A stretch of DNA of 39,969 nt from assembly GCA_010405405.1 (NCBI GenBank), contig MU004241.1, positions 986,350-1,026,318 of the forward strand, read 5' to 3'. Source of the stretch: Microthyrium microscopicum. Taxonomy: Eukaryota. Shown piece after piece: positions 2,906 through 38,799 of the stretch; position 1 is the first letter of the stretch; each line of letters starts with the position of its first letter. The notes under the pieces are model-generated. The model was not told the origin of the DNA. It saw only the letters and a program-made list of their open reading frames with translations, and did not search any database. Made by a program: the position numbers and the translations under genes.

Positions 2906-2999
2906 TTTATAGTAATAATAATTATATTTACCTTAACTCTAATATAATTAAGATTATTTAAGTACTAGACTTATTTTTAATATTATTACCTAAAGCTTT

Positions 3000-7721: not shown

Positions 7722-8114
7722 TTAATGCTATTTTGTTATTAATATAATACTACCTTAAGTATTATAAGTCGTTACTTAAACTTATTTATAAAGGAGGAGG
7801 AATCTATACTCTAGTAGTATACTACTACGCATTATTATTATTATTATTATATAATTAATATATACTTATAGTATAATGCTTATAAGAATACTATTAAGGT
7901 AATATAATAACGTTTGCCTTAGTATTAGCGTTATAATTACTCTTCTATAGTACTACCCTAAGGCTATTCTACCTCTATAGTAGCTATACGTTAACTCTCT
8001 AAAAAATAATATTATATTAATACTATTTTATTATTAATATAATACTACCTTAAGTTCTATAAGTTATTACTTAAACTTATTTAAAGATAAAGAGGAGCCT
8101 ATACCTTAGTAGTA
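7722..8114. repeat. Two ~97 bp direct repeats 295 bp apart
   Basis: taatgctattttgttattaatataatactaccttaagt...ctagtagta at ~7722-7819 matches ~8017-8114. The minus strand reads like 'QISLSDDLQ.LRQYYVDDKIALTQ'. Confidence 0.85.
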
Positions 8115-8489
8115 GAAAATTAAGAGAGTTAAGAAAAGGGTTTAGCTCTAGCGCTCTAGCGCTTTAATATAGCACTAATAAACGTAAGCTAAAGTATATT
8201 AAATAAGGTATTAATAAGTCTAAAAATCTTAATAACCTTCTACTTTAGTATATAATTTAGCTTAATTTTAGTCGTAGGTTTATTATGTATTATAGCTACT
8301 ATAAATAGCTACTTATTTAATTTAAATAATAATAATAGGTGCTTAAATATAATATAGGATATAATAGCTATAGGTATAAGTAAAAAGGAGTATAGTAGAG
8401 TATAAGGAACGTATTAAAAATATTAGTAGAAAATAGAGTACATAAGAATTAAGTTTAGTTTAATAATAGTAATATTCTAGTAAGTTTTA

Positions 8490-9650
8490 GTTTAGTTACG
8501 ACTTTAGAAATGTTTAGCCCTAAACCTATTAATAGTACTATCTAATGTTCTTCTCTATTTAGCTACTAAAAGCTTTTATAATATTATTATTAAGCTACTA
8601 AAGAATAATAACTTCTAAATCTTCTAAAAAAGCTCTTCTTACTAGCTACTAAAGACAAAAACTACTTTTCTTTATATTACTATTAATAAAAAGTTATAAT
8701 TAAGCTTATTACGCTAGTTCTATTACTTAAAGAATTAAACGCTTTCTAGTTAGTAGCTATTAAGTTTACTACTAAGAACTAGCTTTATTATAGTAAATTA
8801 AGCTATAGAAAATTCTTTACTCTACTTATAGCTTTAGGTCTTAATATTATAATATATAATAAATGCTTCTATTAGATATATATTTAGTATAAGAAAGCTA
8901 AATATACTAGGTAAGGCGCTTAGTTATTATATCTTTTTAATAATATAATATAAAAAGATACTTAAACCTCTAGAGTCTTCTATCCTTATTAATAGCTTTT
9001 ATATCTTATTTTAGGAGTACTCTAAATAATAAATACTATCTCTTTAACGTATACTAGGATATTATAATTCTAAATTAATAAAATATAGTAACTATTTTAA
9101 AGATAAGACTTTATAAGCTATACTTATACTAGCTATAGAGATAAATTAGTAATATTATAATACTTATAAATTAATAATTAAACTAGATACTAGCTACTAC
9201 TATATATAGTAAGCTATACTTTTTAAGTTTCTATCTTATACTAATATACTAGAAAATTAGTTATAAATATAGTTAATTAGTTCTACTATATCTATAGCGT
9301 TAAGTAAAAAAAGTATTACTATCTATAGTAGAATAAGAATTAATTAGTTACTAAAGCTAACGTAATTATTAATTAAGAGCTAGCTAAAAGACAATAAGTA
9401 GCACTAGTAGAGCGGATTTAATATATAAAAAAGGTAAAATAGAAGCTAATTAACTAATATTAATATACTTATTTATAACGACTTAAGAAGATTAGGCGTT
9501 AACGTCTAGAATGTACTATACTAAAAGAAACCTAGCTTTATACCTACTAGAATATAAAGAATAGATTTAAAAGCTCTAACTATAAAGTCCTACTTACTTA
9601 AAAATAAAGAAATTAAAGATATTCTAATAAGACTATAAATTTTATTAGGC
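8490..9650 (+). pseudogene. RIP-degraded unknown gene
   Basis: Codon-like frame with surviving tgc/cgg/cga/tgt codons and a coiled-coil-like stretch 'ELAKRQ.VALVERIQ..EKVKQKL' near 9375-9450. No domain assigned. Confidence 0.3.
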
Positions 9651-10630
9651 TTATATTAAACTCTTATCCTTACTTCTTTTAAATAGCGTATTATCTATAT
9701 CTATATCTTATTCTTTCTCCTTATTTATTTAAAAAAAGATACCTTATATCTTTATATAATAACTATCTTCTTATTATAAGCTTTACTATTTATAGCTAAG
9801 AAGAAAAGATTTCTACTATATTTTAACTAAACTATAATATAGTATATATTATATAGATAGCTATAGATTTAGCGCCCTATAAATATCTTAATATATATTA
9901 AAATACTATGCTTATATCTCTTTCTCTATTATTAATGCTAATACTAATAGCTTAATTGCTTTTAGAAAAACGCTAAGGCTCTACTTAAGGATCTAGTTTT
10001 TACGTACTTATATAGTAATAACTTGCTTATCTGCTTCTAAGACTATATCTTACTAAGGAGAATTTAATAATATAATATTTATAAATTAGCTAGTAGTCTA
10101 TTTAGTAGAATTAAGGTTTTATTAATAAGTAGTATAGGAGTCTAGGTAGACTTTATACTTAAGTTTAGTTTAATTAGTTTCTAAGGAAGATTCTATATTT
10201 AAGTCTAGAGTATTATTATTATTCTTTTTTAACTTAGGTATTAATTTAGTTAGTATAATAGCTTTAAGGAGTTAAGAAGTAGTCTAGGATTCTAAGTATT
10301 TATAATTTATATTTTTTAGATAGGAGCGTACTTTAAATAAGAGCACTAAGAGAGTTAAGTATAGTTTTTAGTTATTTTAAAGACTATAGTATATAGTTTA
10401 TAGTAGAATTAAATAAAAGATATAATAGTATTATAATAAGTAGTAATAAAGCTATTAATTAACTAAGCAAGTTATTATAAATAAAGAAAATTATTAGAAA
10501 CTAAGATAATAAAGATATATAATGAAGGTAAATAGCTACTATTTTAATTATTATTATAAGTAGTAGATAATTATTAGGTAACGTTTAGGTCTAGTAACTA
10601 GATAAGCTCTTTATAAAAGCTTAAGGTAAA
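9650..10630 (-). pseudogene. RIP-degraded unknown gene
   Basis: The minus-strand frame reads as S/P/Q/T-rich protein, with a purine-rich tract on + (pyrimidine-rich leader) at ~10630-10720 upstream. No domain assigned. Confidence 0.25.
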
Positions 10631-10995
10631 GTATAGAGAAGATATATATATTAGAAGTAAAGTAAAGAAGTAAAATAAGTTTAAATTACTATAAGTACTA
10701 AAGAAAAAGAATTTAAAATTAATAGCCTATTATTTTATTTAAAGAATTACGAATTAAAAGCTATTAAAAAGAATAAATAATTTTACTTTTTATATATATA
10801 CTATTCTATATAAATATATATTCCTAAAGTTCCTAAATTAATTTATTCTATTATATTCTATATTATATTAATTATTATATTTAAGTCTATAACTAATACT
10901 AATAAAACTAAATTGCTTAGAAGATAATATTATAATAATAATAATAATACTTAGTAGTTTATAAAATATATAACTCTTAGGTAATAAAATATTTA

Positions 10996-13900
10996 TTAGA
11001 CCTCTATTTTATTATATATCTTTACTATTATTACTACTATCTTCTTTACTATTATTACTAGTCTCTTCTTTATTATCTTTATTAGTCTCCTATTTACCTT
11101 TTCTACTACTATTTAGTTTATCCTTTCTATTTTCTATTTCTTTTTTATTACTATACTTTATTTTCTTTATCTTATTAATAAGCTTTTTAAGATAAACTTT
11201 AACCTAAGCTTTATAGAGCTTTCTATTCTTTCTCTCTAGGGCTTTATATCTTACTATAGTTTTAACCTTAGCTACCTTAATTCCTTATTTACTAAAAGTA
11301 ACTAGGTTATATATTCTAGTATAATTATTATAATTAGGGTATAGATTTAACTAATAGTAATTAAAATACTTTAAGTCTCTATAAGGAACTATATATATAA
11401 TAGTTAATAGTTTATTTAGTTTATATACTTTTAACTTTATAGCTAGCTTAAATAATATAAGACTTAATAGCCTATTAAACGTAAGTTTTATAGCTTTTCC
11501 TAAGATTAGTATATACTCCTAAACTAAAGCTATAAGAAATTTAGTATATCTACGCTATAATTTAAAATCTCTTATTATTTAATCTATATTATATACTATA
11601 TAAATAATAAGTAGTTATATAGGAAGTTAACCTAAAAGACTAAAATTATTATTAAGCTCTTTCTTAGATATAGGATAGGCTTAAGCTTATATAAAATTAT
11701 ATTATTAGTAATTCTTAGTTAAGACTTTACTATACTATTAATTATTATCTTTACCTTTTTGCTATTTCTATTTATAGTAAGCTATAAAGGATTATATATT
11801 ATTCTTATTATTATCTATTATATAAGTTATACTACTATATAGTGTTATAATAAGGTAACTTAGCTAGAAAGTATTAAAATATAATACTTTACTAGAGTAT
11901 ATAAAGTCTAATTTATTATTAATAAGATCTTTATCTAAGTATATTTCTTTACTCTATATATATAATAGTATTAGCTTTAGAGAAGACTAGCGCTTCTTAA
12001 AGTCTTCTTTATAACAATTAATTAACTAGCTATATAAATAATCTTTAAGGTTATTAAGCTTAGCCTATTTACTAACATTCCTAGTAAGAAGTATACTAAA
12101 TTTATAAATACTCTTATTATGTAGCTTATCTATATAATATAATTAGAGTTATAAACTATATTTAGGCGTACTTAATAGAATAATTATAGAATAAGTTTCT
12201 TTAGATATAATCTTCTTCTTAGTAATATTATAGACTTAATAGTTATAATTATTATTATTATTCTAGATTATATTCTTAATATAATTAGTAAAATAATAAA
12301 TTATCTAAACGTACTAATTAGATTAAAAGTTAGTCTATTTTACTACTAGTATAGTATATTCTTAATATAACTTTTCTATAATACTAGAACTAGTTCTATC
12401 TATAGTACTAAATATATAAATAGATAGTATAAAATAAATTAAGTTATAAAACTTAAAGAAATTAAGTCCTTTAAACCTAGCTTAAAGAGTCTTACGCTTA
12501 TATATTACTATTTTAGTATATTCTATAATTTATAAATAGACTTATATATATTTAAGTATATTCTTATTATATAACTTATAGCTAGAAAGTATAATAATAT
12601 CTATTAAAGCTTTAATAAATTTTATTATAATTAGGTCCTTTAGAATTAAGAGTAAAGCTAAGGTAGCTATAAGTTACTTTAAAAGTGCTTATAATTCTAA
12701 GCTAGTCTTCTATTAAACGTTATAGTAGCCTTAAGCTATCCTTAGAAAGCCTAAATAAATAGGACACTATAAAAACTTATAATTAATTATAAACTTTACT
12801 TTTACGCTAAATATAGATTTCTTTTTTTTTTTTTCCTACTTAGTCTTTAGTATATTACTATCCTTCTTCTTAGTTTTTAGCGTTTTATAGGTATAGGTCT
12901 TTTATATAGCTCTATTATTCTTTATTTTAGCTACTAGTATTATAGATATTACTAGTACTCTCTTTTCTAAAATAATTTAAGCTATCTAGTCTATTACTTA
13001 CTTAACTAGTCTATTTAAAAAGAATATATATAGTAGATTAAAAGTAATTACTATATAAATATTTAATAAAGAATAATTTTAAGCAAAATTATAAATTTTA
13101 TAAATATAGTCTTTACCTTTAGCATTATTAATAGTAATAAGCTATTTAGTATACTCTCTTTTCTAATTAGCGTAATAAAATACTTCCTACTTTAATATAT
13201 TCTCTTATAAAGTTATATAAGTCTAATAGGCCTATTTACTAGTAAGGTCTTATTAATATAGTTATAGTATTAAGTAAATAGGATAGTAATATTTAGACTA
13301 GATACCTATAATTATAATAAGCTCTTTATAATCTATGCTTATATAAGTAAGAATTAAAAGATACCTTTAAAACTAGCTATTAGTAATTACTATAACGTAA
13401 CTACTCTTAAGGACTATTCTAAGTTTTATATTTTATTAGTAAATAGCTCTATAATACTTAAATATATAGTATTAAACCTTTAAATATAATATCTATAGCG
13501 TTATAAAATATCTTAAGTTTACTATTAATATCTATACTTTTTAGCCTAGAGAGTACTATAATAAGGAGAAATCCTAGTCTTCCTATAGCTCTTCTAATAC
13601 TTCCTAATAAATTAAAAATAGTTATATAGTAAGCCTATATATAGTTATTACTACGTTATTTAGATATTATAGTCTTATTTAACCTCTAATAGATAGAAAT
13701 AAGCATAATACCTAAATTAACCTTATTTTATAATTCTTACTACCTTTTTACTAATTAAGTATTAGTATAGATATACTTACTATTTTTATTCTTTTATATT
13801 ATAAGCTTAAAGTAGAGATTTTTAGTAAAAGGCCTATAAAAGATAAAGAATTTAATAATTTCTAAGATACTCTAAAAATATACCTTAACTTTACTACTTA

Positions 13901-14200
13901 GAAGATTTTTAATACTTTTTATTTTATTATATAATAGCTTCTTAAGTATTACTTCCTATTAGCTAGGTATAAAGCCTTTAAGGTTATTAATATTTTCTAT
14001 TAGTAATTTATAATTCTTTACTTTCTAACTAAGTAAGTTATATATTTTACTTCTAAAGGCTATTCCCTAAAATAACTTATTTACTTTATTCTTTAATATA
14101 CTATTAGAAACTACCTAACTAATAAACTTTAGTTCTTCCTTTAGTTAACTTTATAGCTTTACTCCTCTATAAAGCTTTTCTCTTCCTAAATAATAATATT
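10996..14200 (-). mobile_element. Plavaka-family (CMC/CACTA-related DDE) transposase domain, RIP-inactivated
   Basis: De-RIPed motifs occur in the expected order: FISWVVSNGMSKNEVDKLF (~14070-14130); ERIYTD..SAERW.ELQ (~13730-13785); LIPIHWGSDKT...WAYYMTIFNLPGSIRR...FLL.A.LP (~13545-13705); DGQFRRCLPILAY.SIDYEE....GI.SKHHCPMC (~13270-13385); NIH.A.TFDPLHIFFLNGLVK (~13000-13065); LNFPKFHNLIHF..SI.MFGT.DGTSSG.TEKLH (~12365-12470). An acidic tail lies at ~11010-11100. Confidence 0.88.
13426..13477 (-). other. Probable ~52 nt spliceosomal intron in the transposase gene
   Basis: The frame shifts by +1 between 'FHDA.D.IFK' and 'ELRMVLKSGYVMAIADG'. The intervening sequence begins GT, contains a TACTAAT branch-like site and ends TAA (possibly a mutated YAG). 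Removing 52 nt restores the frame. Confidence 0.5.
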
Positions 14201-17200
14201 AGTACTTTATCTTAATAATATCTTAAGGTAGTAGCTTATGCTTATTAATCTAGTTATAGCTTTTATTAGTTTTATAGGCTAGTATAGGTATACTTACTAG
14301 ATATTTTAGATTTTATTATAAGTATATAATAACTTTATTAACTATATATTATATACTACTTTTAGACTTTTAAGACTTATTAGCCTTATCTATCCTATCT
14401 TATAAATTACGTTTATACTATATTAGAATAGTAACTCTTTCTATAGCTTTAAGGGTAGCTAAAGATAAAGGTATAGTAAAAGGCGTAATTATCTTATCTT
14501 TTATTATAAGTATTTCATACGTAGTATAATTATAACTAGGATAAGTAGTAGATCTTATACTAGTAGAGAGACTATTTATAAAGGGTTCTCTTATTAAAGT
14601 TTTTATTACTAGTATTAATCTTTATACTTAATTAAAGAGCCTTTAAAGGCGATTATAAGGATTTATAATAAAGAGGAACTATATATTATTTAGAAAACTT
14701 AATATACCTATATTTAAGAAGATTAGTCTATAAGAATAATAATATAACTTATTTAGGTTAAATATATACTAGGAGATTAAAATATATAAGTTAAATATAT
14801 CTATATTTAATTACTTTTCTTTATTATTATACGTAATATTAAAAAGGTTACGTTAGTATATTAACTTCTATACCTATTTTGTCCTTATTAACTTTTAAAG
14901 ATATAAGTATATTCTTAGTATATAAGTAGTAAATCTAGTATTAAATTTATACTAGTAATAACTAGCGTTTAATTTTGCTTAGTATTCTAAAGCTTAAGTA
15001 ATAGAGTTAACTCTTAAGAATATTACCTAATAATATTTTATTATATATATAATATACCTTTACTTACTAAATATTTCTAAACGTACTAGATATTTCTAAA
15101 TATTCTAGATAGCTAGTACTAAGACTAAGTAAAGGTGCTAGCTAATCTTATATAATTAATAGGTTATAATATTACGCTAGAAACGCGTTGCGTAACTTTA
15201 TATTATTAATTACTAGCTTAGTAAGTTAATTTTTTTAGTAATAGTACTATTCTATCTATCTTTCTAGTCTAACTTCCTTATATATCCTTTTTTATTAAAT
15301 TTTCTTATCTATATAATTTTTTTATCTTAAATCCTTTTTTTGTTTAGTACTAACTATTATACTATTTAAGTTAGTTAATTAATTAGCTAAACGAACCTTA
15401 CTTTAAACTTAAACCTTTTTACTATCTTTTTCCTTATTATTATTCCTTACTATTAATCTTTACTAACTTTACCTTCTTTATTAGCTTTATTAGCTTTAAA
15501 TTCTTTATTCTTAGGTTTAAAACTATAAAGTAAGGTTAGTTTTATAAGATCTCTAATTACTTCTAATTCTTTAAGTATAATAGTTTTAATCTCCTTATAT
15601 ATATTTAGCTTTTTCTTACGATAAGAAACTACTCTATTAAAGTTAAGAATATTAAGTTTCTCTAAATTCTAATAAGAGTAATTATTAGTAAATAGTATAT
15701 GCTATATATAGCTATTATTAATAAAATACTTTAGCAATCTACTAAGTATAAATTATTTAAACTCCTTCTATCTCTTAGTACTAAGGGCTATTATAGTACT
15801 ATAAAGCTTTAAGTTACTAAAGAATAAGGATAAGTAGCTCTAAGATGCTATAATATTTATTTATAAGTTTTCTATAAGGAAACTAGTATAATCTTTTTAA
15901 ATAAGATTAATAAGATTCTAATTATACTTAATACTAGAGCTATTATTATAGGTAGTTATTAAAACTTAACTAAATTATAAAGGTATATCTTAATAGTCTT
16001 ACTAGGTATATATATAATTATTCTAAATATATATAGTAACCTATTTAAGTAGCTAACCTTTAGTTTTAGTATAGAGGCTAGTTTACGTAAGGTAAAGAAT
16101 AATAACTATAATATTAACGCCTTTTAATTATATCTATAGTAGAAGTTTAATTTATATAAAGGCTATAATATAGGCATTATAAGTATTAGAACTTAAACTA
16201 GTAACGTCCTTTTTAACTTTATTATCTCTAATATTTATAAATATTGCAAGTAGTATATCTTTTCTACGTTCTAAGGATAGGAAAAGCTAGCCTATAATAT
16301 ATTATAATTAGTTAAATTTAGAGTTATTATTATTAGTATATTTAAGAATTTTGTAGCCTATATTATTAAAGAGATTACAGTATAATGAATTAAATCTAAA
16401 TACTTATTTTAGTATAGTTTAGCTAAAGCTATTTACTATAGTATTATATATTAATAGTACTTAAGAACTATTACAAAACGTAGCTTTTTTATATTTAAGA
16501 TTATAGATAGGTCTAGGCTAAAATAGATCTTTAGTCTATATAATTATTTAAAGTCTATATAGAGATATAATAGCTATTATTTATAGTCTATATAATGCTA
16601 CTACTTTATTATAAATCTATAAGTTAATACCTATAAAATTTGCCTAGAAAAGCTCTTATAGAGTATTATAGTTTATAAGACTAAGAAGAGTAATTATTAA
16701 TTATAAATAATATTACTCTATATCTAGTAGTAGTTTACTATAATTAGCACTCTCTAACTTTAAGAGCTTCTTCCTACTATAATACTTTTCATTAAGAATT
16801 TAGAGGTTAAAGATATAATTAAGTAACTCTTTAGTAGCTATATCTATATTATATTCTTACTTTCCTATTACTAAGTTAATTACGCTAATTATTCTACTAG
16901 CTTAATTTACAAATTTCTTAAATAAGTATTTAAGACGTTTAATATAATAATTATAAATATCTTTAAAGTCTTAACGTTTAGCATTTATATAGAATTACTA
17001 TAAATAGTAAGCACTATACTATTTAGTAAGTAATACTATTTTAGTATCTAGGATATTAGTACTATAGTTATTTATATTATCTATATTCTGCTATTATATA
17101 CTAGGACCTTAATTTTAGTAAACTTAAGTTTATACCTCTTTTAATTTCCTTAAGGCAATAGATTTCTCTATCTTAATTAAGTATCCTTAGATAGTAAAAA

Positions 17201-17604
17201 ATCATAAAAAGTTTATAGAATTAACTTCTATATAGATATTTATATACTTAGTAATAAGGTTATCTAATTATATATTTATAATATATATAGCTAAAATCTT
17301 TATCTTAAAATTAGAATAAAATATTATAAAGGTAATTAATATTACTATTATAGCTTTTATAGTTTTAGTCTTACTATATCTTAGCCTAGCATAGTAAATA
17401 TTAAGTCTACCCTTACTACCTTTTAAGAAAATAATATTAATAAACTCTTTTTAATCCTTATAAAGAGCCTTTATAATACTAATCTATTCTATCTTTTTTA
17501 TAAGATTTTAAATCTCTTCTAAGGTAATTCTAAAGTTAGTCTTTAATAATTATATAAAAGTAGCTATACCTAGTTTTATAAAAGTGCTTAGCGACTAGTA
17601 CTAA

Positions 17605-17636
17605 TTATTATTAATATTAGTATTATTAATATTAGT

Positions 17637-17667
<31 letters not shown>

Positions 17668-17800
17668 GTATTACTATTATTAGTATTATTAGTATTTTTT
17701 ATAGGCATAATCTTATTATCTAACTATTTATTAGAATTAGAAATATCTTTAGGTATATCTTTGTAGGTATTATTATTATTATTATTATTATTATTAGCGT
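17605..17800. repeat. (TAT/TAG)n trinucleotide tracts, read as RIP-converted Asp/Asn/Thr runs on the minus strand
   Basis: tattattatt runs at ~17605-17695 and ~17768-17800 read aat/act codons in the frame of the giant ORF. Confidence 0.7.
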
Positions 17801-17803
17801 TAT

Positions 17804-17908
17804 TAGCTGTATTTAATTACTAACCCTATTTGTCGTTAGCTACTTTTAATTACTAACCCTATTTATTATTAGCTACTTTTAATTACTAACTCTATTCGCT
17901 ATTAGCTT
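17804..17908 (-). repeat. 33-bp (11-codon) tandem repeat x3
   Basis: Unit ttagctacttttaattactaaccctatttatta; minus strand approximately ADSEQGQQLEA. Confidence 0.85.
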
Positions 17909-17964
17909 TAGTAACCTCTAGCTTAGTCTATTAATCCTAAGCTTAAGACTTTATAAAGGGGAAG

Positions 17965-18362
17965 ATACTATTATTAGTAGAATAGAGAGGCGCTACTATA
18001 GTAGTATCTAAAGATTCTATATTAATATTGTCTTAGATAGAGAAGAAGAAAAGATAAGAAGTGCTATTATTAATAAAATAGAGGAGCGCTACTATAATAG
18101 TATCTAGGAATTCTATATTAATATTATCTTAGACAAAGAAAAAGGAAGGATAAGAAGTACTATTATTATTAAGATAAAGGGGTACTACTATAGTAGTATC
18201 TAAGGATTCTATATTAATATTATCTTAAATAAAGGGATAAAGAGGCTAAGAGGTACTATTATTAATAGAATAGAGGAGCACTACTATAGTAGTATCTAGA
18301 GATTCTATATTAACGTTATCTTAAATAAAGAAAGAAAGAGAATAAGAGGTACTATTATTATT
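17965..18362 (-). repeat. 96-bp (32-codon) tandem repeat x4
   Basis: Anchor (c/t)(g/a)ctactata at 17991, 18087, 18183, 18279; minus strand approximately STSHP.PSSVQDNVD.ESPDTT.AAPLHS.DD. Confidence 0.92.
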
Positions 18363-20984
18363 AGCTTTAAATTCCTATTTAAACTAAGATTTAGTTATAT
18401 AGTTAGATAAATCTAAATTAAGTAGCTTATTAATTAGCTTTTATGAAGTAGAACTACTACTTATTTCCTTTAAAGTTTCTTTAGTCTAACTAGTTAAAGG
18501 TTTTAACGTATTGTTTTTAATATTACTAAAGGATAAGCTACTTAATAAAGCATCCTCTTATATCTTATTAACCTTTATAGTTAACTTTTTTAGCGCGTTA
18601 GTATCTATTAATACTTTTTTAGTATGCTTTAATATAATACTAAACTCTACCTTTCTAAAGAATAAGGATAAGGTATAGATAGTAAGAATCTTCTCTAATA
18701 AAGGCTAACGTTCTAAGGAGTCTAGATATAAATTAAGTACTATAGTAAAGTAGTAATCTAGGTTATATTCTTTCTATCTTAACTATACCTAGTTAAAACT
18801 ATTTATTTAGTATATAATAGGCTTATTTAAATTATATATATATATCTTAACCTCTAGCCCTTTTAATTTAAAAAAAGCCTTATATAGATTCTTAATTAAT
18901 TAGCTATAGTCTAAAAAAATAATAACTTCTTTAGGGATTTAGAATAAAGAGAATTAAGCATTATTAGTATATTTATTATTAGGTATAATAGAAGGATAAT
19001 ATATAATTATAAGTACGTTATAAGTAGCTTAAATATTATAGTCTTAGTTAATAACTTTAGTAGTAAATTAAGAGCCCTTAAGTTTAGCTTCTAGCTTAAG
19101 TTAGATTATATAGACGTTACCTTCTTAAAAATAAGGATATTTATATCTATTTACTATAGTATAAAAATTAAAGCTTACTAAGAATTTATAGTCTTTACCT
19201 CCTAGTATTCTAGTAGTGCGTAATATAACATTATAGGAAGCCTTATTCTACTTATATGCCTAATAAAGCTATTCTACTAAATTTATACTTTAGGCTATAA
19301 ATAGATATAGGACTAAAAGATAGACTATACGTAACAAACTTATAATTCTATTATTCTTTACTTTTATAAGATTATTATAATTATTTAGAAAGGTAATATA
19401 ACTCTTCTATAGGCTAAAGACGCTATTTATAAATAGATAATTAATATTAGTAAGAATAATATTTAGATTAGTTTATGTACCTTAAGAGATTAGCTAAGAA
19501 AAATTCTTTTCTATAAGTATAGCTAGGCTAGTATTAATCCTAAAGAACTAAAAGACTATAGGGTACTAATTCTAAATAATATATTAGAGATAATAAAGAA
19601 ATAGGTTAAATTTAGTATTTTTATTACTAACTATTAAATTACTAATTATAGTAGAGTAGACTTAAAAAGAGTTATTTAATAAGTTAGGATATATCTTAAT
19701 AATAAGTATAGTTATATAGCCTATAGCTAATATACTTCTATAGTATTTAATGTCTTAATTAATCTTATAAGCTAATTAGATAAGTTACTTCTTTAAGATA
19801 ACTATAAGAAACTTAATAATTATTTAGTCTATCTTTTTCTTCTTTATAATTAAATTATCTAGTAAGAAGTAGATAGTTTTAACTATTAGAATTATAATAT
19901 TTTCCTATATATTATTTTTATTCTTATTAACTTTAAAAGTATTTCTCTTATCTCTAAGATATAGGTAAATAGTTAAGGTTAATATAAACTAGGTAACCTA
20001 TTTATTATTTTTTATTATAAAGAATTACGCTTTAATATTAAAAACTATAGCTTATTAACGCTTCTTTTTTAATCTATGTATATATTTAAGCTTACTAGTA
20101 GTACTATCTTAATTAACTTTATTATTAATACTATTACCTAAGTGTTAATTTACTTTATTAATTAAATTATTTCTACTAAGAGCTACCTTTAGACTTTTTT
20201 TTAGCATATCTTCTAGATAAGGCTTATTTAAATATACTTATAAGTTATAAATCTATTAAATTAAGAGCTTACTATTAGATAGATTTACTATAAGATTATA
20301 AATAGTATATTAAGGATTCTTAAGATTTATTTAAGACGTTAGTATAAAGGTATATTTAGAAGCTTCTAAACTATTTTAGACTTTTGCTTTACCTTTATCC
20401 TTAGTCTTAGGATTTTATTTACTTAAGTCTAAAAATATAGATAAAAAATTCTCTTTAGCTAGGTAGGTAGAGATAGCTATAGAATCTAGTCTATATAAGT
20501 AATTAGCTAAGAATAAAGAAATAAATTTCTTTAAACTTATATTTTAATAGCTTTAGAATTATTTAGCTTACTATTTTTATAAGAAGTATAAGTTTTATAT
20601 TAATTAGAAAGAAGTTTTAGGATTATAATAGCTAGATAGCTAAAGATCTTAATAAGAATTTTGTCTTTACTTATATCTTAGTTATAAATTTAGCTATTAT
20701 AATTATATACTAATTACTAAGTATATAAAGCGTTATAAGTAGTTATGCTTATAATAAGTAGAGTAAAAGCTAAGAAAAAGATAGAAAATATAAAGAATTT
20801 AGGTAGTATTTTTTTTAAGGAAGAAGAAGTATTAAAAAAAGAAGATAAATAATAATAATAAAAGTAGTAACTTACTTATTATACTAAAGCCTAAAGGCGT
20901 AACTACTAAAAGTTAGCTATTTAGCCTAAACTTTAGGTTATTAAGCTATACTATCTATAAAAGAATAAACTTAAGGAATTATTT

Positions 20985-21635
20985 AAGAGAACTTATTTAA
21001 TTCTTATAATTATAAAGAATAATAAAAAAGAAAGATAGTAGTAAGAGAGAAGTTATAAGAATAAAGTAAGGAATTACTCTTTCTATTAGAGACATAACTA
21101 GAAATTTATTTATTAGTAGAGTTATTATAAAGCTACGCTATTCTATATATAATAACTAAGTATAAAATAGATTTAAAAGAACTTATTTAATCTAATAATT
21201 ATAAAATAGTAGTAAGAGAATAATAATAAGAGAGATTTAGTAGTAAAAAGATAGAAATATTCTTTTTTCTAGTATAGAATCTTCTAGTTAAATAGATAAA
21301 AACCTTACTAAAGCCTATACGTAATAACTATATAGTTCTTAAAATTAAAAGAGACTACTCCTTTCCTCTTAAATATTAAGTATAGGTATAGGTATTAATT
21401 ATAGTTTCCTATTCTATTATAATTACTACTAAACCTTATATTATAATTACTAAGTTAGGAACTTAACTAACCTTATATAAGCTAAGACTTCCTTTTAAGT
21501 TTAAGCTTATATTAGCTAAGCTCTACTTTGCTATTTTAAAATATTCTCTTTTTAGGCCTTTAATACTTCCTCTCTTACTATTATATCTCTACTTTACTAC
21601 TCTTTTATAATTACTAGATTAAATAAGTTTTTTTA
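20985..21635. promoter_or_regulatory. Motif repeated in both orientations within the divergent intergenic spacer
   Basis: GAACTTATTTAAT.T..TAATTATAAA followed by a purine-rich 'tagtaagaga' tract at ~20989-21060 and ~21179-21235, and in reverse complement at ~21562-21634. The repeat is observed; regulatory function is inferred only from position. Confidence 0.45.
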
Positions 21636-23184
21636 ATTTATCTATTCTTTAGCTATTAGTATTTTATATACTTAGTAATTACTTTAGTTTAGCTCTATAG
21701 GTATTAAATCCTTTCTCTTAAGTTAAAGATATAAATTAGTATTCTTAATTCTATAGCTTAAAGCTTTTATACGCCTAACTATTCCTTTAATAAAGCCTCT
21801 AAGCATAATTCTCTCTTATAAATTAATTATAATATTAGATAAGCTATTCCCTTAGTACTCTTATTTTAAAAGGTTTTAGTATTTTATATATAGACCTTTA
21901 GAACTAGCTCTTCTTTAGTATAAATCTTACTTTTAACTAGTAGTAACCTATAGGTACGATATTTTGTAATAGCTAACTTTAAAAATATAATATAATATTG
22001 CTTAGAGGTACTAAATAAATATTTTAGCTAACTTAATTTATTAACTTTAATATATCCTTACTAAATACTTTTTACTTCTAATTTATTACTAATTTACTAT
22101 ATTTAATAAATCTTCTTTTTCTAGTACTATTAACTCTATTAATAAATCTATACTAAATTCTATAAACGACGTAGTAAAGATAATTTATAGAATAAATTCT
22201 AAGTATAATTAAAGAAATTATAAGTAGGCTAAGTAAATAATTAGAGCTAAGAATAATATAACTAAGGTAAACCTTTATACGAAATTAGGCTATTATATTA
22301 ATAAAATAGTCCTTAATATTATCTCTATTATAAAAAAGGATATTCTTAACTAATTTAGTATAATTAGATAACTTACTAATACTATTAGTTGCAATCTTAG
22401 ATATATTAAAGTTATTAAACGCAATTTGTAATTCTCTTAAGCTATTATCTTATTAACATTTAATATCTCCTTTTATAAAGCCCTAAACTAGATTATACTT
22501 TTATATACGCAATACCTTATTAGTAATAAATAAGCTTATTAAGAACGACGTAAGTAGCAAAAGTAGCCCTATAATCTATATAATTATTTTATTTTAAAGC
22601 TAGATATAATCCTAATTATTCTATAAATAACTTAAGCGTTTATAATATTTAATAATAAAAATACGTATAGTAATTCTACTTTTAGAGGATATTAGCTATA
22701 CTATTCCTAGCTTCCTAACTAGCCTTATAGAACTATAAATAGACTATAAGGAAATTATACTTACTATCTAAATCTTATTAATAGCGTATTACTAAATATA
22801 CTATAACTATAAAGTAATAGCCTAAATTTAGCTATATTTTATCCTTTATTTAACTAATATAAATACTAAGGCTATATAATACTACTACTAGGCTTTTAGA
22901 ATAGTAATGTCTACTATTAACTATAGTAGTAGTCTAGCTATTATAAAATATAACTTCTACTATTTATATAGTATAACTTAACTTAGTATAACTTTATAAT
23001 ATTTAAATTTAAAAGTATAATTCTACTTTAGCTAGGTCCTAATAGCTATAGCTTATATTAAACTTTATAGTAATTTAATACTAATAGAAATATAGTACTA
23101 AGCTATGCTAATAAAGGCAATAATAACTTCTTCTAAAATACCTTAGAAGGTTATTATAGTAATATGCTATAGTATAGCTAATTT

Positions 23185-23346
23185 TACGTATATACCTTTA
23201 GTAATAGCTATATACTACCTAAATTTATCTAGCTACTTCTTTTAGCTCTACTAGACCCTTTTTAATCTTACGTATATATTTCTAATAATAGCTATATACT
23301 ACTTAGATTTACTTAGCTACCTCCTTTAGCTTTACTAGACCCTTCT
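23185..23346 (+). repeat. 84-bp (28-codon) tandem duplication
   Basis: tacgtatata...ctagacccttt starts at 23185 and 23269; approximately HVY.S.NGY.PP.FTQPPPSAPPDPS. Confidence 0.85.
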
Positions 23347-23997
23347 ACGCGTATATAATTAAAAAAGAAAAAACTTATTTTAAAGAAATACTATAAAACT
23401 TAATAGTTTTTATCTATCTTTTAAGAAACTAATACTTAGAATAGTAAAGACTTTAATATAATTATACTAGTATTTACTAAGGACTTCTTATAAAAATAAG
23501 TTATACTAGACTTAAAAGATATATATAAATTAAGCCTTTTTAACTTATTTAAGATAAATATAGATATTTATAAATATATAATTAAGATTAGTATAAGGTA
23601 CTTTAAAGGTATAATAAGCTTAAAGTTAGACCTATCTAAAAGTCTAGATATAATTTATAATATAGGTTAAGTATAGAATAATTAAACTATTTTAATAAGT
23701 TTAAATATACGTAATTTTACTAAAGTTACCTATAATAATCTCTATAGGCTAAGAAAGATTACTTTTAAGGTTACCTAAATTAAATCTTTCTTAAAGAAAA
23801 CTTATACTAGTAAATAAAAATATAAGGCCTTAATTACTTCTACTCTAAGCTCTTTTTCTTTATTTTAAAATAGACGTAATAAGAAACCTTATATTTAACC
23901 TTATATAGATCCTTAGCTAACTACTTAACCTACTTTTACTACTAAACTATTAATATATAAACATAATATATATAAAGATCTTATTCTTAACTAATTT

Positions 23998-24090
23998 AAT
24001 AAAGATAGCAAGGTTACTAAAAATAATAAAGATAGCAAAGTTACTAAAGATAATAAAGATAGTAAGGTTATTAAAGATAATAAAGATAGC
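23998..24090 (+). repeat. 27-bp (9-codon) acidic tandem repeat x3.5
   Basis: Unit aat aaa gat agc aag gtt act aaa gat, approximately DEDSEVTED after de-RIP. Confidence 0.85.
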
Positions 24091-24510
24091 TTAGATAAGA
24101 ATTCTAAAGATAGCTTAGTTAAGGATTCTAAAATAGAGTTAAATAATAATTTAGATAATTCTAAAGAAAAAGACTTAGAATTTCTATTAATACTACCTAG
24201 TAGAATAAAGTAAAAGTATAATAATAATAAGAATAATATAGAAAGAGTTAGTAATAGCTATAATCTTTTAGTATCTATAAATAAAAAAAAATTTAAGAAT
24301 AAATCTAGTTCTTATAATTATAAAGAATAATAAACTTTAATATAAATAAGCCTATCTAGTAAGAAAAATAAAAGTAAGTCTAAACGTAAAGAAGTAAAGG
24401 CAAAATTAACTTTAATCTTAAAAGTAATTAATAAAAATAGTAGCTAGGAATATTATACTTCTCTAAGCTTACTAGTCTAAATATTATAGCCCTAGAATGC
24501 TACTACTAAT

Positions 24511-25215
24511 ATAGAGATAAGGAGCATATAATAAGATTAAGTATTACTTCTAAATAACGCTAGACCTATAAATACTACTACTATATCTTCTTAAGAACTT
24601 AAAGAACGCATTATTAAGCTAGAGATAGAGAGTATATAATAAGATTAAGCACTACTTCTAGATAGTACTAGACCTATAGATATTACTACTATATCTTCTT
24701 AAGGACTTAAAGAGTACGTTATTAAGTTAGAGATAGAGAATATATAATAAGATTAAGTACTACTTCTAAATAACGCTAAACCTATAGATATTATTACTAT
24801 ATTTTCTTAAGGACTTAAAGAGCCTATTATTAAGCTAGAGATAGGGAGCATATAATAAGATTAAGTACTACTTCTAGATAGTACTAGACTTATAAATACT
24901 ATTACTATATCTTCTTAAGGACTTAAAGAGTATATTATTAAGCTAGAGATAGGAAGCGTATAATAAGATTAAGCACTACTTCTAAATAGTGCTAAACCTA
25001 TAAATACTACTACTATATTTTCTTAAGGACTTAAAGAGCGCATTATTAAGCTAGAGATAGAGAGTATATAATAAAATTAAGTACTACTTTTAGATAGTAC
25101 TAGACTTATAAATACTACTACTATATCTTCTTAAGAACTTAAAAAGCGCGTCGTTAAGCTAGAGATAGAGAGTATATAATAAGATTAAGTACTATCTTTA
25201 GATAGTAATAGACTT
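24511..25215 (+). repeat. 108-bp (36-codon) tandem repeat, about 6.5 copies, inside the helicase ORF
   Basis: Unit starts (ntagagata) at 24511, 24619, 24727, 24835, 24943, 25051, 25159. The frame-1 reading is approximately PE.GS.QQDQAPLPDSA.P.DTTT.SSQGLEERVVE. Confidence 0.95.
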
Positions 25216-28200
25216 ACGTAGCTTTAAAGCCTTAAGCCTTCTACTAGTAATATATAAATAAGAGATAGTAAAGTATAAGCGCTAATTTTTATAAATATTA
25301 ATTATCTATCTAAAATATATTATTTATAGAGACCTAATTCTACTACTCTAGATTATATTATATTACTCTTTACTCTATAAAAATTAAGTTATTTAATAAT
25401 AGTTAAACTCCTTCTTAATTACTTAAGAAAACGCTATAGCTCTTTAAGTATGCTAGCTTCTTTAACTATACTATCTTCTTAAAATAAGCTATTTTCTTTT
25501 AGCTATACTAAATCTTTAAGTTCCTTTAAGTACGTTATTAATTTTATTAGCGCTAAGAACGTTATTAATCTTACTACTAATAACTTAGAATTATTATTAC
25601 TTATAGTAAACGTTTTTATAAACGCTAAAGACTTAATTAAGAAAGATATTACTATACTAAATAACTTTATAGCTACTAAAGTAATTAATTTAACTATAGA
25701 AAAGGTTACTATGCTATCTAAATCTTAGTTACTAAACTTACTATCTTCTTTATAGAATAAAGTAAATACGTTACGTAGTATAGAAATAAAATACCTCTAG
25801 GAATTATAACCTTATAAGGATAAATAATAGTATAACTATAATAATAAAGATAGTAATATAAGAATTAATATATAGTAAGCTTATAAGAAATAAATTAAAC
25901 CTTATTTGTCTAATATATATAAACTAATACCTAATACTATTAGCTTTTATATGCTAAAGACTTCTAAAAATAAATATATCTAAGAACGAACTAGTTTCCT
26001 TATTAACTACTTTAACTATACTAAATATAGATTTATTATACTTAAGTCTTCTATAATAAATAAAGCTCTATATACTAAAGCTTTATAAGCTAAACTATTT
26101 TATAATATATATATAGAATATAAAGAGTCTAAAATAATTAAAGATAAGGATTTAAAAGCTTCCTTTATTACGAACTTCTATATAAGACTATTATAAAGTA
26201 AAACTTATAAGTACTTAATACTTAAAGACTAGAGAGAAATATACGTATTCTTTAATTATAAAGATAAGAATAATATATTAGACTTTATTATTTCTAAATT
26301 TAAAGTTAATATTTAAATTTATTAAGCTATTAAAATAATAATTATATATAAGTATATTATTCTTATATAAAGTCTTTATATTATAGATATTCTAAGCTTA
26401 GGGAAAACTATCTAGATACTAGTTATTATTTAGATAAATAGTTAATAAACTAAAAGCATAATAATATATATAAAGAAGTAGCGCCTTATAAGGGAAAAGA
26501 AACCTAAGCTTCTTAAGAAATATCTATTAGATATTTAAGTCCTTAGTTATTAAGGCCTTAAAGATAAAGAAAAAGGTTCTTATACGTAGTTAAAAAGTCT
26601 TAACTAACTTATAATATACTATTACTCTAAGAAATTATTAGTATAGTTAAAATCTATTATAACCTATGTTAACTTAGATAACTACTAGTATAGTACTCTT
26701 ATTATTAATATAAACTATATATAAATAATTATATTTATAATCTTAGTTTAGTTAGATAAATAGAAAAAGGTAATTAATATCTTAAAATATAAAAGTAAGC
26801 CTAACTAAGTATTTACCCTCTATGTTAACTATTTAAGCATAAAACCTAAGTTTATATTCCTAAATAAAGTCTCTTATACGCGTAGACTTTTTACTAATTT
26901 TAAAACTAATTTTAAAATACCTAAGTAAACTAATATTATTATATTAACGATATTAGGTTTATATATATCCTAAGTCTTATAACTAATTATAAGACTCTTA
27001 TAAGCATAGTTAAAAGAATAAAAAACTAGATATTATAAAACTCTAAAACCTAAGAACTATTTCTATACTAATATAGAATTAGTAGTAAATAAAGGTAAAT
27101 ACCTATATAGTTAAAGATACTTTATAATTAGAGTCTTAGTCTTAAATAAGTTTTATAAATATTAAATACTAAATAACTTAACTTATTCTAATATTAATAA
27201 AGAAACCTATATATCTAGTTATATATTATTAGAGTACTATTATAGTATATAGTCTAGAGCTACTATATTAAGTTAATCTAGAATATATTATAATATTATA
27301 ATAAGCTAACTAAACCTAATTACTTACTTAGTAAATATATAATATATTTACTTCTTTAATACTAATAAAGATATTAGGAAGTTTCTTAAAGATAAATTAA
27401 AGAAAGATTAGGTAATCTTTACTAATAACTACGTATTATTTACCTCTTTATTACTTAACGCTATTTCTAGTTAAATTACTATACTTATTATAAAAGATAT
27501 AAGATTATATAAGTATCCTAATAAAAAAGAAAAGAAATAACTTATAAGAAAATAAGCTTAAGTAAGCGCTACTTTAGTTAGTATATATACCTTATTTAAA
27601 CTTTACTATATAATAAATATAAAGCTTTTTAGTTAAAAGTATATTATACTACTTTTAAACAAAATAGGGCTTATTATTATTAATATAATAGACCTAGAAG
27701 TAATATAGCTTATAAATAAGCTTAATAAATATATAGTAGCATAAATAAATAAACTAAGGATAAGTACTATTAATAACTTTATTACTTAGCATAAAAGTAA
27801 ACTATATTAAGCTAAATAGATATAAGCTAGGCTAGCTAACTATATAGTCTATTAAACCTTTACTAAGATTATATATTATAGACTTATTATTAAGGTACCT
27901 TATCTATTAATATTAAAATAAGTAAAAGAAATTAAAAGATAGACTAAAGATAATCTCTATTACGTATTAATAAAAATTAATAGTAGCTTACTTTTAAAGC
28001 CTAACTCTAAGAAACTAACTAAGCCTAAGGATAATTTCTTTATTAAAGAAGCTTCTTAGTTTTTAAAAATAAGTACTTAGATATAGTACGTAGTAAATAT
28101 TATTAAAAAGATTTATACTAACTTAGAAACATACTTTCTTAATAAAGAGTAAAAGAAATAAGGCTTATAATAGAATAAGGTCTTAATTATTATAAAGTAT

Positions 28201-29169
28201 TTTACTTTTATTAGTATAATTATAATAGCGCTTTAATATATAATTAAGAAATTTAATCTCTAAGTACCTTATTTTAGTAAAACTAGTACGTTAAGTAAAA
28301 AATTATTTTTAATTAAAGTAAGCTATTTAAGAACTAGCTTATCCTTACGCAACAAAGCTAATATCTATTACTCTTTCTAAAATATTCTAAAGTCTACTAT
28401 AAATAGTTAAACGCTATTAAGAGTAAGTAAATACCTCTTTAATAAGAATATCTAGGTTCTAGTTAGAATATATAGTAGCTATAGTACTAGAAGTAACTAA
28501 TAATAAGTAAAGTATCTAATTATAATATCTATTCTAATATTACTAAGTAATTAGACTTAGGATACTAGAAAAGTTCTTTAAGTAAATAATATAGTAAAGT
28601 ATATCTTAATTAATATATTATACTTAGATAATAATTTAATTAATATACTATTACAAAATATTAATAAGCTTTAGTTAAATACTATAGGTTTTATAGAGGC
28701 TTATTCTAAAGATTAAGTAGTATAACTAATAAGACTTAAGGATTTATAAATATATCTTAAATTAGGACTAACCTAGCCTAAGTTAACTAAATTAGTATCC
28801 TAACCTAAGGAAGCCCTAGCTTCTCTATCTATAGAAGAGATATAGAAATACCTAAAGAATATTAAAAATAATATATACTAAAATATTAAAAAGAGTTTAG
28901 TTATAATTAAGATAAAGCCTAGAGATAATAAATTTAATAAATAACTTTATATATAATTAGTTTAGTTCATAGTAAGGATTAAAGTACTACTATTAAATTA
29001 TTAATAATATAAAATATTAAAAAATATACTTAAAGTTAATATTATTACTATTAATATATAAAATACATCTTTATAATAAATCTAAATATCTTAACTAGAC
29101 TAATAGACATATCTAGTAACTAAAAGAATCTAGAGAGAAATAGAAAAATAATAAGAATAGATAATAACG

Positions 29170-29650
29170 CTTTATAGCCTATAGAGTATTTATTTAGCTA
29201 AATATCTTTTAATATATATCTATAAGATATAACTTAACTATATCTATTTATAAATACTATTTTACTTATATTCCTCCTCCTTAATAATATTAACTTATAA
29301 AATAAATAATATAGCACTATTAGTTTCTATAGCTCCTATTAGAATTTTAGGTAAAGAGCTTAGGAAGAATTATAAAGCTATATTATTTATACTATTAAGT
29401 AATTAATAATTTAAGCTAATATTCTAATAGGGTATTCTATTAATCTTCTTCCTATTTATTTATAATATTAGAACTCCTTTAAAAACAAAAATTAGTAGTT
29501 TAGTCCTTTAACTTTAGCTTTTCTATAAGTAAATCTATTATCTTTACTAGCAAAAGGTTAGTAAATTATATTATATTATAATACTAGCGTTATTAATACG
29601 CTTAAATAAACTAGAAAAGATCTAGCTATATAACTACCCTCTTTACTAGA
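29170..29650 (-). pseudogene. Small RIP-degraded gene, possibly intron-containing
   Basis: The minus strand has a branch/acceptor-like 'tactaaccttttgctag' (~29547-29563) followed by a coherent frame 'IYLQKAEVEGP...FLFLEEFQ'. A purine tract lies upstream at ~29690-29760. Confidence 0.3.
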
Positions 29651-29799
29651 ATTAATTCTATTATCTACTTTATCTATATCTAAAGGCTAAGGAAAAGACA
29701 ATAAAGGAGAGAGAGATAAAAAAAGATAAAAATAAGGAACTAAAGATTAAGAAGGCTTAAACTTAAGGTATTAAGTTTTATTTAATTAGATAAGAAAAG

Positions 29800-30480
29800 C
29801 TACGTCCTTTTATAACCTTAATAATAAACTATTAGTCTAAGTAACTTTACTACCTAAATCTAGGACTTACTTATAATAACTATTACTAGTTTTAATCCTT
29901 AGCTTACTTATTTAACTCTATCTTTATACTTAATATCTTTATCTATCTTAATATTATATCTACTACTAATAACTATAAATATTATATTATTTCTTATACT
30001 AAGACAATCTATAAACTTAGTTAAGCTTTTATAAACTTAATAGGCTTATATAAATATATAAATCTTAAAAAACCTAATATAGTATTTAGATTTAAATAAC
30101 GTTTAATCCTAATATATTAATTATAATTATATTTCTTTATAATTAGCTTTATTTAGATATATACTTTAATATATACTTATTCTAGTTATAGTAACTTATC
30201 CCTTCTATATCTTTTATTAAGATTTACTTAGGTAGGTACTACTACGCTTTAATTAGACCTACTTAAAACACCCTAAGCTAATTTTTAAGAAGTTTAAGGA
30301 AGAGTAAAGTAATACTTAAAATATAAATAAAATTAAGAGTAAGAGTAAGAACTATAATCCTTTAGAATAATTAAGTATAAACTAATTATTTTATAAATAT
30401 AGAGCTATAGCTATATAATTACCTACTCTACTAAGAGTAAGCTTACTATATTTTATATTCCTACTTAAAAGCTAAAAATA
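29800..30480 (-). pseudogene. Possible RIP-degraded gene
   Basis: Minus-strand frame with an 'SHSHSQ'-like stretch. It is preceded by a purine tract and the same short motif found upstream of the neighbouring relic. Confidence 0.2.
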
Positions 30481-31249
30481 TAAAGAAACTAGAGAATATA
30501 AAGAAAATAAAGAAGTACGTAAAGAAGGCTATAAAGAAAGCTATAAAGAAAGCTTAGTTAGAGAAGAAAGCTAAGATAAAAGAAGTTACTAACTTATTAA
30601 AGAAGACTATACTTAAAAATAAAGTTAAGATAATAACTAAAGAGGCTAAGAAGGCCTAAAGTTTAAGATATAAGATACTCTTTACTAGGTAGAAACTAAA
30701 AGTTATTATATAGAATTTATAATTACTATATTAAAGTTAATTAATAATATTAGCTCTAAAAGCTTAAATAATTTTTTTTATCTATACTTTCTTACTTTAA
30801 AGGTTCTAATCTCTATATTAGGAAGCTCTCTAATATAACCTTAAATATTCTAAATATACTTATCTATAAGAGATATATAGTAAATAATAAGATAAGTTAT
30901 AAGAAAGGTAATAATTAGAAGTAGTAATTAAGAAAAATAGAATCTTAAGCTATAGGTATATTTAATAAGAGGAATTACTCTATTACTCTTAAAATCTCAA
31001 AATTTAATTAACTATTAAAAAAGTTATATAAGGTTCTAGACTTAAAATTACTACTAAGCTTTAAGGCTTCTTATCCTCTTTTTTACTACTTATCTTTTTC
31101 TATTTATAGTAATTATATTTTTATATTAAATATATATTAGTTAGTATAAAGGTTAAGATATTATCCTTAAAAAAGAAAGAGTAGAGTCTACTAAAATAAG
31201 ATAAGCTTTAGCTATAAAACTATCTACTATATTAATATTATTACTACTA

Positions 31250-33240: not shown

Positions 33241-33454
33241 TTTAAGTAATAACGCATTTTTAACTATTTAAGTACTACTATAGTATATTTCTCTTATATT
33301 TTCCTTTCTATATTATAATAAATTTATAACTCTTAATCCTTATAATATACTTATTATTAATTTTTAGTATATTCTCCCTATTTTAACTTTAATCTTATAT
33401 TATCCTCTTTACTTAATAATCTCTCTATATTATAATTAGACTTTTAGAAGATAA

Positions 33455-34200: not shown

Positions 34201-34439
34201 AGCTCTTATTTTTTTATAAATTTAATTAAATAAAGAGAACTCCTATTAATAATAAGGTCTTATTTTATAGAGTAATTAATAGTATTATATTAATTAGGCA
34301 ATAAACTACTAAATTTAAAGTAATAAAATAAATTAAGAAATAAAATATAATTTATTATTACGTAATCCTTAGACTATTATAAGTTTTTCCTTTTTCTTTA
34401 ATTTAGGAAATATACTAATAATTAGAATAAAGCATAACG

Positions 34440-35800: not shown

Positions 35801-35937
35801 AGAATAGTGCCTATAATTAGTACTATAATAGTTAACTAATATCTTACTAGGTTTAATATATAGAATTAAAATTAAATTATTATATAATAATAAAAGAGTC
35901 TAGACTTATTAAGTAAGCATAGACTATAAATATAGTA

Positions 35938-38700: not shown

Positions 38701-38799
38701 AATAGAGTTATTAAATTAACTATAAATAAATTAACCTTAGCTATTTTTAATAGTAAGTATAACTTAGATTCTTAGCTAGATTATTAAAACGGTGCTAGT

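Follow-up and report, generated by a model that had tools for sequence, protein, structure and literature searches.

The stretch analysed here, referred to as the window, comprises 39,969 nt of contig MU004241.1 of the fungus Microthyrium microscopicum. Its central part holds the relics of two very long reading frames that diverge from a shared spacer. Frame 1, on the minus strand, carries a match to the Plavaka transposase domain, and frame 2, on the plus strand, carries in its last third a signature resembling the start of an SNF2-type ATPase. Together they may represent the core of a giant Plavaka-lineage transposon that was inactivated by mutation.

Both frames were delimited by counting stop codons in each frame, against a mean stop fraction of 0.122 over the window. 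Relic frame 2 (22000–28881, plus strand, frame +1, ~2,290 codons) has a stop fraction of 0.082, compared with 0.123 in frame +2 and 0.173 in frame +3. In the main part of relic frame 1 (13472–20250, minus strand, frame -2, ~2,260 codons), the fraction is 0.080, compared with 0.126 in -3 and 0.187 in -1. Its downstream part (10996–13150, minus strand) runs in frame -3, with a fraction of 0.070 against 0.124 in -1 and 0.210 in -2. The switch from -2 to -3 occurs between ~13472 and 13150 and may reflect an intron or an indel. With this one frame change, frame 1 totals ~3,000 codons (~2,260 + 720), and a double stop near 10996 ends it. The low-mid-high cyclic order of stop fractions is alike in all three segments, each on its own strand, and the opposite strand has the sequence low-high-mid, in agreement with the strand assignments made by homology. 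Per-frame stop counts revealed no low-stop runs in the flanks comparable in length to the relic frames, and 10996 and 28881 are good end coordinates for them. Between the frames lies the spacer (~20251–21999), in which per-bin stop counts show no coherent frame. The preliminary description of this DNA had reported two very long frames diverging from a spacer of ~1.2 kb; the stop fractions uphold the frames, their strands and their ends, and the spacer measures ~1.7 kb instead.

The window has a G+C content of ~20% overall, ranging from 18 to 23.5% across all 1-kb bins, and every 2-kb bin has a TpA/ApT index of 1.51–1.80 and a (CA+TG)/(AC+GT) index of 0.04–0.15. Low G+C content with such dinucleotide indices is the mark of saturated repeat-induced point mutation (RIP) in filamentous fungi. 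This signature extends throughout the window, and the heavy RIP earlier ascribed to both frames is borne out by the values in all bins. Copies of internal repeats are 82–91% identical by base and 97.7–100% identical at the purine/pyrimidine level (A/G and C/T merged); they thus differ by transitions, the kind of change that RIP introduces. The stretch is a dead, RIP-killed copy.

For frame 1, the evidence comes from a Pfam scan of 22 translations in which stops were read as X (~38,500 residues). The scan left out frame +2 of 13.5–20.5 kb, frames +2, +3, -1 and -3 of 21–28.9 kb, the plus frames of 10.5–13.5 kb, and positions 1–6495 and 33384–39969. Plavaka was the sole Pfam family matched, and only two of the 22 translations, which overlap each other in frame -2, scored. 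The match to the Plavaka transposase domain (PF18759) lies at 13472–13919 on the minus strand, covers profile positions 34–195 of 325 and reaches 20.9 bits (E 2.3e-4); in the longer translation, the same site scores 17.7 bits. It shares frame -2 with the long relic and stands at the downstream end of that relic. The match agrees in family, frame and place with the Plavaka motifs previously noticed at the end of frame 1, albeit with a partial domain and a score below the cut-off. Both shortfalls weigh against a transposase in frame 1: the Pfam gathering score of 26.3 was not reached, and the remaining ~130 profile positions were not located in any scanned frame. A lowered score is to be expected under saturated RIP; the missed cut-off therefore weakens the proof of membership rather than the likeness. 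Under RIP, cysteine and histidine codons both become tyrosine codons, and tyrosine is abundant in every frame. No Pfam match was obtained for the downstream part of frame 1 (10996–13150, frame -3) or for any of the 12 translations of the two flanks (6496–10997 and 28882–33383, six frames each), and a word-index search of longer proteins with the Plavaka stretch returned nothing at E ≤ 10. Taken at the level of profile similarity, a Plavaka-type transposase relic on the minus strand is supported.

Frame 2 was examined with a purpose-built, RIP-aware search, in which profile columns are converted into probabilities over the 64 codons, with C→T and G→A changes at a rate of 0.65. The null model passes background amino acids through the same mutation model, and alignments are scored with the Viterbi algorithm. 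The SNF2 inputs were 15 bacterial and 80 viral loci, from which a small profile of 13 cores and a broad profile of 84 cores (13 bacterial and 71 viral) were made. An initial codon score based on the codon frequencies of the window itself proved to be driven by composition, with shuffled controls at 193–243 bits, and was replaced by the model null. With the latter, in-silico mutation left held-out bacterial SNF2 genes at 297, 152 and 43 bits, compared with 13–17 bits for codon shuffles.

In frame +1, the broad profile detected an SNF2-type N-terminal ATPase signature at 26260–26469, with 33.1 bits over profile positions 3–72; the other five frames scored 17.3–21.2 bits. The small profile also gave its best score of the six frames in +1 (25.3 bits, 26296–26433). 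Shuffles of the region averaged 14.4 ± 1.4 bits with a maximum of 19.0 (none of 100 reaching the observed score), and the maximum for whole-frame shuffles was 21.0 bits (n = 18). The score depends little on the assumed mutation rate, being 33.9, 33.1 and 31.9 bits over the range 0.5–0.8. The match contains a Q motif (..YQ, present as YX), a 20-residue spacing, motif I and the beginning of motif Ia. Motif I reads D-x-x-S-L-G-K-T-I-X, X being a stop, and is compatible with D-x-x-G-L-G-K-T-I-Q once RIP is reversed. The wording of this motif in SNF2 proteins is LADxMGLGKTxQ. At the same site, the DEAD, ResIII, PIF1 and NACHT profiles do no better than shuffles: their scores in the region are 13.5–18.8 bits, with region shuffle means of 13.4–14.7 and maxima of 18.0–19.1. 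As far as motif wording and profile scores can tell, a Q motif and a motif I of SNF2 type at 26260–26469 are supported.

The SNF2 domain is solid only over these first ~70 profile positions. The preliminary description had recognized SNF2-like motifs I–VI in frame 2; of these, motif I and the beginning of Ia stand, together with the Q motif, whereas II and III could not be located and IV–VI are weak. The last three are candidates in a helicase C-lobe-like stretch at 28168–28587 on the plus strand, which both SNF2 profiles place alike. With the small profile and loose gaps, this stretch scores 24.5 bits versus 15.6 ± 2.5 for shuffles (1 of 200 as high; gap opening -6) and 19.8 versus 14.1 ± 1.8 bits (3 of 200; gap opening -7), and with the broad profile 15.6–19.5 bits (10–21 of 200), so that it is suggestive only. 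Just downstream, at ~28700–28734 in frame +1, the ResIII profile has its best match of the region (18.8 versus 13.4 ± 1.4 bits, shuffle maximum 18.0), which may be a further remnant of a superfamily 2 (SF2) helicase C-lobe. When the whole profile was aligned as a collinear chain with loose gaps, the score rose to 45.2 bits versus 20.8 ± 3.6 (0 of 150 shuffles) and 50.9 versus 21.1 ± 4.1 (0 of 100), these gap costs having been picked after the data were seen; in three settings with the small profile, +1 ranked first in all three and the whole region was spanned in two. The best piece for the remainder of the N-lobe with either profile (13.8–16.1 bits) is a motif-Ia-like stretch at 27895–27951 in frame +1, which reads V-P-x-L-L-x-x-x-stop-x-x-E-I.

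Several results speak against an SNF2 domain in frame 2. The +1 translation of 21001–28899 matched no Pfam family at E ≤ 1, and neither PF00176 (SNF2-rel_dom) nor PF00271 (Helicase_C) was found above threshold in the frame. A phmmer search of the PDB returned no relevant protein, only a kinesin (E 2.6) aligned to a tandem repeat; HMMER searches against 1.84 billion representatives gave nothing at E ≤ 1e-3, and the word-index search gave nothing at E ≤ 10. Profile searches for the two domains proposed earlier have thus come out unevenly, with a PF18759 likeness in frame 1 and no Pfam SNF2 or Helicase_C match in the stop-as-X translations. After position 72, the rest of the N-lobe scores 13.8 versus 14.8 ± 2.3 bits with the small profile (124 of 200 shuffles as high) and 16.1 versus 12.7 ± 1.7 bits with the broad one (7 of 200), the latter also near shuffle level. 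Motifs II (DExH) and III were not found within ~200 residues of motif I, and the two profiles place them differently. The motif-Ia-like stretch stands ~475 codons past motif I and ~75 before the candidate motif IV, which corresponds to no simple SNF2 layout. Seven held-out giant-virus SNF2 cores still scored 140–301 bits after in-silico RIP, and 67–195 bits with 15% further random changes. The present copy therefore holds no compact canonical SNF2 domain. Frame 2 may encode an insert-rich or very divergent SNF2 relative, it may be a rearranged copy, or the SNF2 likeness of its product may have been confined to the opening part of the ATPase.

Alternatively, frame 2 may not be an SNF2 ATPase at all, and the element would be a Plavaka relic with a giant partner gene of another kind. 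The signature would then come from a P-loop protein that resembles SNF2 at motif I, or from a rearranged fragment with the first ~70 residues only. The four failed database searches, the missing motifs II and III, a C-lobe stretch that 1 to 21 of 200 shuffles equal and the 67–301 bits of complete mutated domains in the controls are all compatible with this. What it leaves unexplained is the extent of the 33-bit match, which goes beyond a mere P-loop in that it runs from the Q motif across a 20-residue spacing to the GLGKT-I-Q box. Furthermore, the P-loop-bearing NACHT, PIF1, DEAD and ResIII profiles fail at the site, and the best ResIII match lies elsewhere, ending at 28734. The profile after position 72, taken as a whole, scores 25.4 versus 18.0 ± 2.9 bits (1 of 200 shuffles) at one of three gap settings, with 13 and 25 of 200 at the other two. 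We regard this alternative as rather improbable.

The number of copies was assessed from contigs of four runs, all from one sample and one study, aligned to positions 10001–30000 of the window at ≥80% likeness. Three of the runs yielded ~3,400–3,600 contigs each and the fourth 456, and all 30 bins of the interval were covered in all four. In one run (X1), 869 of the 3,566 contigs aligned at ≥99% identity, 987 at 95–99%, 1,269 at 90–95% and 441 below 90%, which leaves 2,697 below 99%; they differ from the window by transitions at 2,913 places and by transversions at 28. From this divergence and the excess of transitions, it follows that the genome holds many diverged, RIP-mutated copies of the whole 20 kb. 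In other copies, the 108-nt array of frame 2 is shorter by one unit or by five, as seen from contig joints that skip 108 or 540 nt. In the 96-nt repeat of frame 1 (17968–18330), contigs of other copies from runs X2 and X4 are G-rich where the present copy is A-rich. The sample therefore includes one or more copies in which that part is much less affected by RIP, and a readable copy may exist in the same genome. Since all four runs derive from one sample, they give no evidence of presence or absence, which weakens the case for a mobile element.

These data bear on the possibility that no transposon is involved, and that segmentally duplicated host genes (a domesticated Plavaka-derived gene together with a host SNF2 gene) were destroyed by RIP. 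RIP strikes any duplicated DNA, no termini or target site duplications (TSDs) were found, and the transposon genes known from the literature covered fall far short of both frames in length. Against such a block stand the contigs below 99% identity, which number thousands in three of the four runs and include many variants of each position, a sign of many copies, as well as the number of tandem array units, which varies among copies. On balance, duplicated host genes appear very improbable.

The spacer contains a repeat unit of 100–140 nt in three copies, two in direct orientation (20942–21082 and 21134–21265, plus) and one inverted (21565–21670, minus), with self-BLAST pairs 74–81% identical; within them, the inverted pair 21150–21217/21658–21592 reaches 92.6% identity at the purine/pyrimidine level. 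Such an arrangement fits a shared control region and abutting element ends alike. In the latter case, the locus would consist of two unrelated repeats side by side, namely a Plavaka relic with its end in or close to the spacer and a separate repeated element or duplicated gene with the ATPase-like frame. The head-to-head layout would then have arisen by chance insertion, whether or not it was afterwards duplicated as one block. Juxtaposed elements are to be expected where the whole window is RIP-mutated repeat DNA, and the spacer units could be the subterminal repeats of element ends. Positions 21342–21608 of the spacer are unbridged among the longest contig pieces, beside which there are 11,329 others, which also weakens the case for a single element, and no terminal inverted repeats (TIRs) were found around both frames. 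Other evidence is hard to accommodate with two repeats. Contigs that differ by ~11% from the window cover 20023–21202, 20996–21342 and 21608–22631; the start of each frame therefore runs on into the spacer in other copies too. Summed contig depth is similar over all 30 bins, although depth is not a measure of copy number. Many copies of a shorter element with differing neighbours should produce a common break point, and nowhere in 10001–30000 do as many as five contigs start or end together. We consider two adjacent repeats unlikely, and a single mobile unit with both frames somewhat more probable.

Self-comparison of the window by base and at the purine/pyrimidine level gave neither TIRs nor TSDs nor element ends, and empty sites were not found either, which again tells against a delimited element. 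Inverted repeats enclosing 11–29 kb were limited to low-complexity or chance-length matches, and the pair 11088–11173/31367–31286 was rejected as a TIR candidate, as it is a purine run facing a pyrimidine run. Loose contig ends at 10729/10773, 14893, 26420, 28316 and 29237 were not accepted as element ends, each resting on a single contig, and contig joints with sides of 21–25 letters (e.g. 10884>27296) were disregarded as unreliable. In RIP-mutated DNA of 20% G+C, the short termini published for Plavaka are indistinguishable from chance unless other full copies are at hand.

Overall, the earlier observation is partly confirmed and its interpretation partly supported. Our preferred explanation, to which we assign a probability of roughly 45%, is a giant cut-and-paste transposon of the Plavaka lineage that carries an SNF2-like ATPase as an accessory gene. 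The stretch is one RIP-killed copy of a multi-copy repeat that would measure at least 18 kb. Frame 1 would bear a transposase domain of Plavaka type, that is, a CMC/EnSpm-related DDE enzyme, and the last third of frame 2 would bear an SF2 ATPase whose opening Q motif and motif I are of SNF2 type. The spacer would act as a central control region shared by the two genes, with transcription running outward from it. Fungal Plavaka and KDZ elements carry TET/JBP dioxygenases, which are thought to undo methylation-based silencing. By analogy with these, and with the accessory genes of the giant Plavaka of red algae, the SNF2-like ATPase may have aided transposition or countered silencing. It may once have been complete and may have acted in chromatin access, as the preliminary description proposed.

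A more specific version appears doubtful: an undescribed giant Plavaka lineage of at least 18 kb in a RIP-competent filamentous fungus, with its own divergent SNF2-type ATPase, maybe JBP2-like in that a long and perhaps base-modifying N-terminal region is fused to it, and with a less mutated copy in the genome. The Pfam Tet_JBP family, sought as a reference for the JBP2-like idea, was found in none of 301 prokaryote genomes. The preliminary description knew of no account of a Plavaka-SNF2 pairing, and we likewise found no description in the literature searched, which did not cover the gene neighbourhoods of Iyer 2014 and Kojima 2020. The pairing would thus be new if true, and the present copy is too decayed to prove it. 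A transposon equipped with an SNF2-type remodeller of its own would extend the known counter-silencing tools by an ATP-driven chromatin motor, and the relation between transposition and nucleosome access could be tested on it. The copy in the window is dead, and its value is that of a pointer to the family.

Tandem arrays are found within both frames and beyond them. Frame 1 contains a 24-nt array in its -3 part (11019–11097), a run of 6/9/15-nt units (17604–17696), a 33-nt array of 3.3 copies (17799–17907) and a 96-nt array of 4.2 copies (17961–18360), all on the minus strand; the copies of the last are 82–83% identical by base and 97.7–100% at the purine/pyrimidine level. Frame 2, on the plus strand, contains an 84-nt array of two copies (23179–23344), a 27-nt array of 3.5 copies (23997–24090) and the 108-nt array of 6.5 copies (24512–25213), in which the copies are 85–89% identical by base and ~99% at the purine/pyrimidine level. 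The periods of six of these arrays (24, 33, 96, 84, 27 and 108 nt) are all divisible by three. Outside the frames, arrays lie at 3281–4005 (period 360 nt), 4669–4793 (66 nt), 5469–5731 (63/126 nt), 5901–6004 (54 nt), 31282–31389 (51 nt), 35010–35362 (60 nt) and 36554–36890 (33/168 nt), and these periods are multiples of three as well. Periods of this kind are therefore not special to the two frames. The in-frame repeats pointed out earlier are indeed present in both, without being peculiar to them in period, and the flanks show hints of being relics of coding repeats as well.

The flanks hold some further features. The sole open reading frame (ORF) of at least 100 aa among the six frames of the window (133 aa, TTG start, 5388–5789, plus strand) lies entirely inside the 63-nt tandem array, where frame -3 is also nearly stop-free, and is probably a by-product of that repeat. 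At the left end (47–2943), there are direct repeats of long period, consisting of pieces of 110–290 nt at offsets of ~540–1,430 nt that are 98–100% identical at the purine/pyrimidine level. An inverted pair of 88 nt (1688–1775/5270–5357), with 96.6% purine/pyrimidine identity and its arms ~3.6 kb apart, could be the termini of another element.

The locus can be set beside several known groups of elements. Starships use a tyrosine recombinase. No Starship-type tyrosine recombinase domain was seen here in the stop-as-X searches, which are a weak means of detection. The locus has in common with Starships and with the KDZ transposons of Cryptococcus that these are large fungal mobile elements with extra genes. 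The KDZ elements measure 6.4–10.9 kb and include extra ORFs of unknown function (PMC11343200), and their transposases are reported to share no sequence similarity with Plavaka (Kojima 2025, PMC12730594).

AcademH, KolobokH and Helitron are DNA transposons that encode helicases, with domains of DEAD/Helicase_C or PIF1 type (PMC10799480). They provide a precedent for a cut-and-paste or rolling-circle transposon that encodes an SF1/SF2 helicase next to its transposase or as a fusion with it. They differ from the present locus in that the DEAD and PIF1 profiles fail on frame 2, and in that their transposase families are unlike the one seen here.

Plavaka elements are CMC/EnSpm-related, are sometimes associated with TET/JBP genes and include PlavakaA and PlavakaB (Kojima 2025, PMC12730594). 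They are present in Tuber, a member of the Pezizomycotina, with 2-bp TSDs (PMC12581995), and their published termini are TGT..ACA, CATCA..TGATG or CATAC, with TSDs of 2–3 bp. The locus resembles fungal Plavaka in its PF18759 similarity, in its fungal host with RIP and in the possible presence of an accessory gene, a place that TET/JBP takes there. It departs from them in the ~3,000 codons of the transposase-bearing frame, in a partner that is SNF2-like instead of TET/JBP and in a score below the PF18759 cut-off.

The giant Plavaka elements of red algae measure 17.4–19.1 kb and carry three accessory genes, PAG1–3 (bioRxiv 10.1101/2025.02.11.637652). The products described include a protein with N6-adenine methylase and SET domains and another with ParB and 2OG-oxygenase domains, and the single mention of SNF2 in that paper concerns host gene families (10.1101/2025.02.11.637652). 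Apart from the other host kingdom, the difference lies in the accessory genes, the products described including no SNF2-like ATPase. The likeness extends to the size class (~18 kb or more), to the combination of a transposase with large accessory genes that have presumed roles in chromatin or DNA modification, to the tandem repeats within the element and to the degenerate state of most copies.

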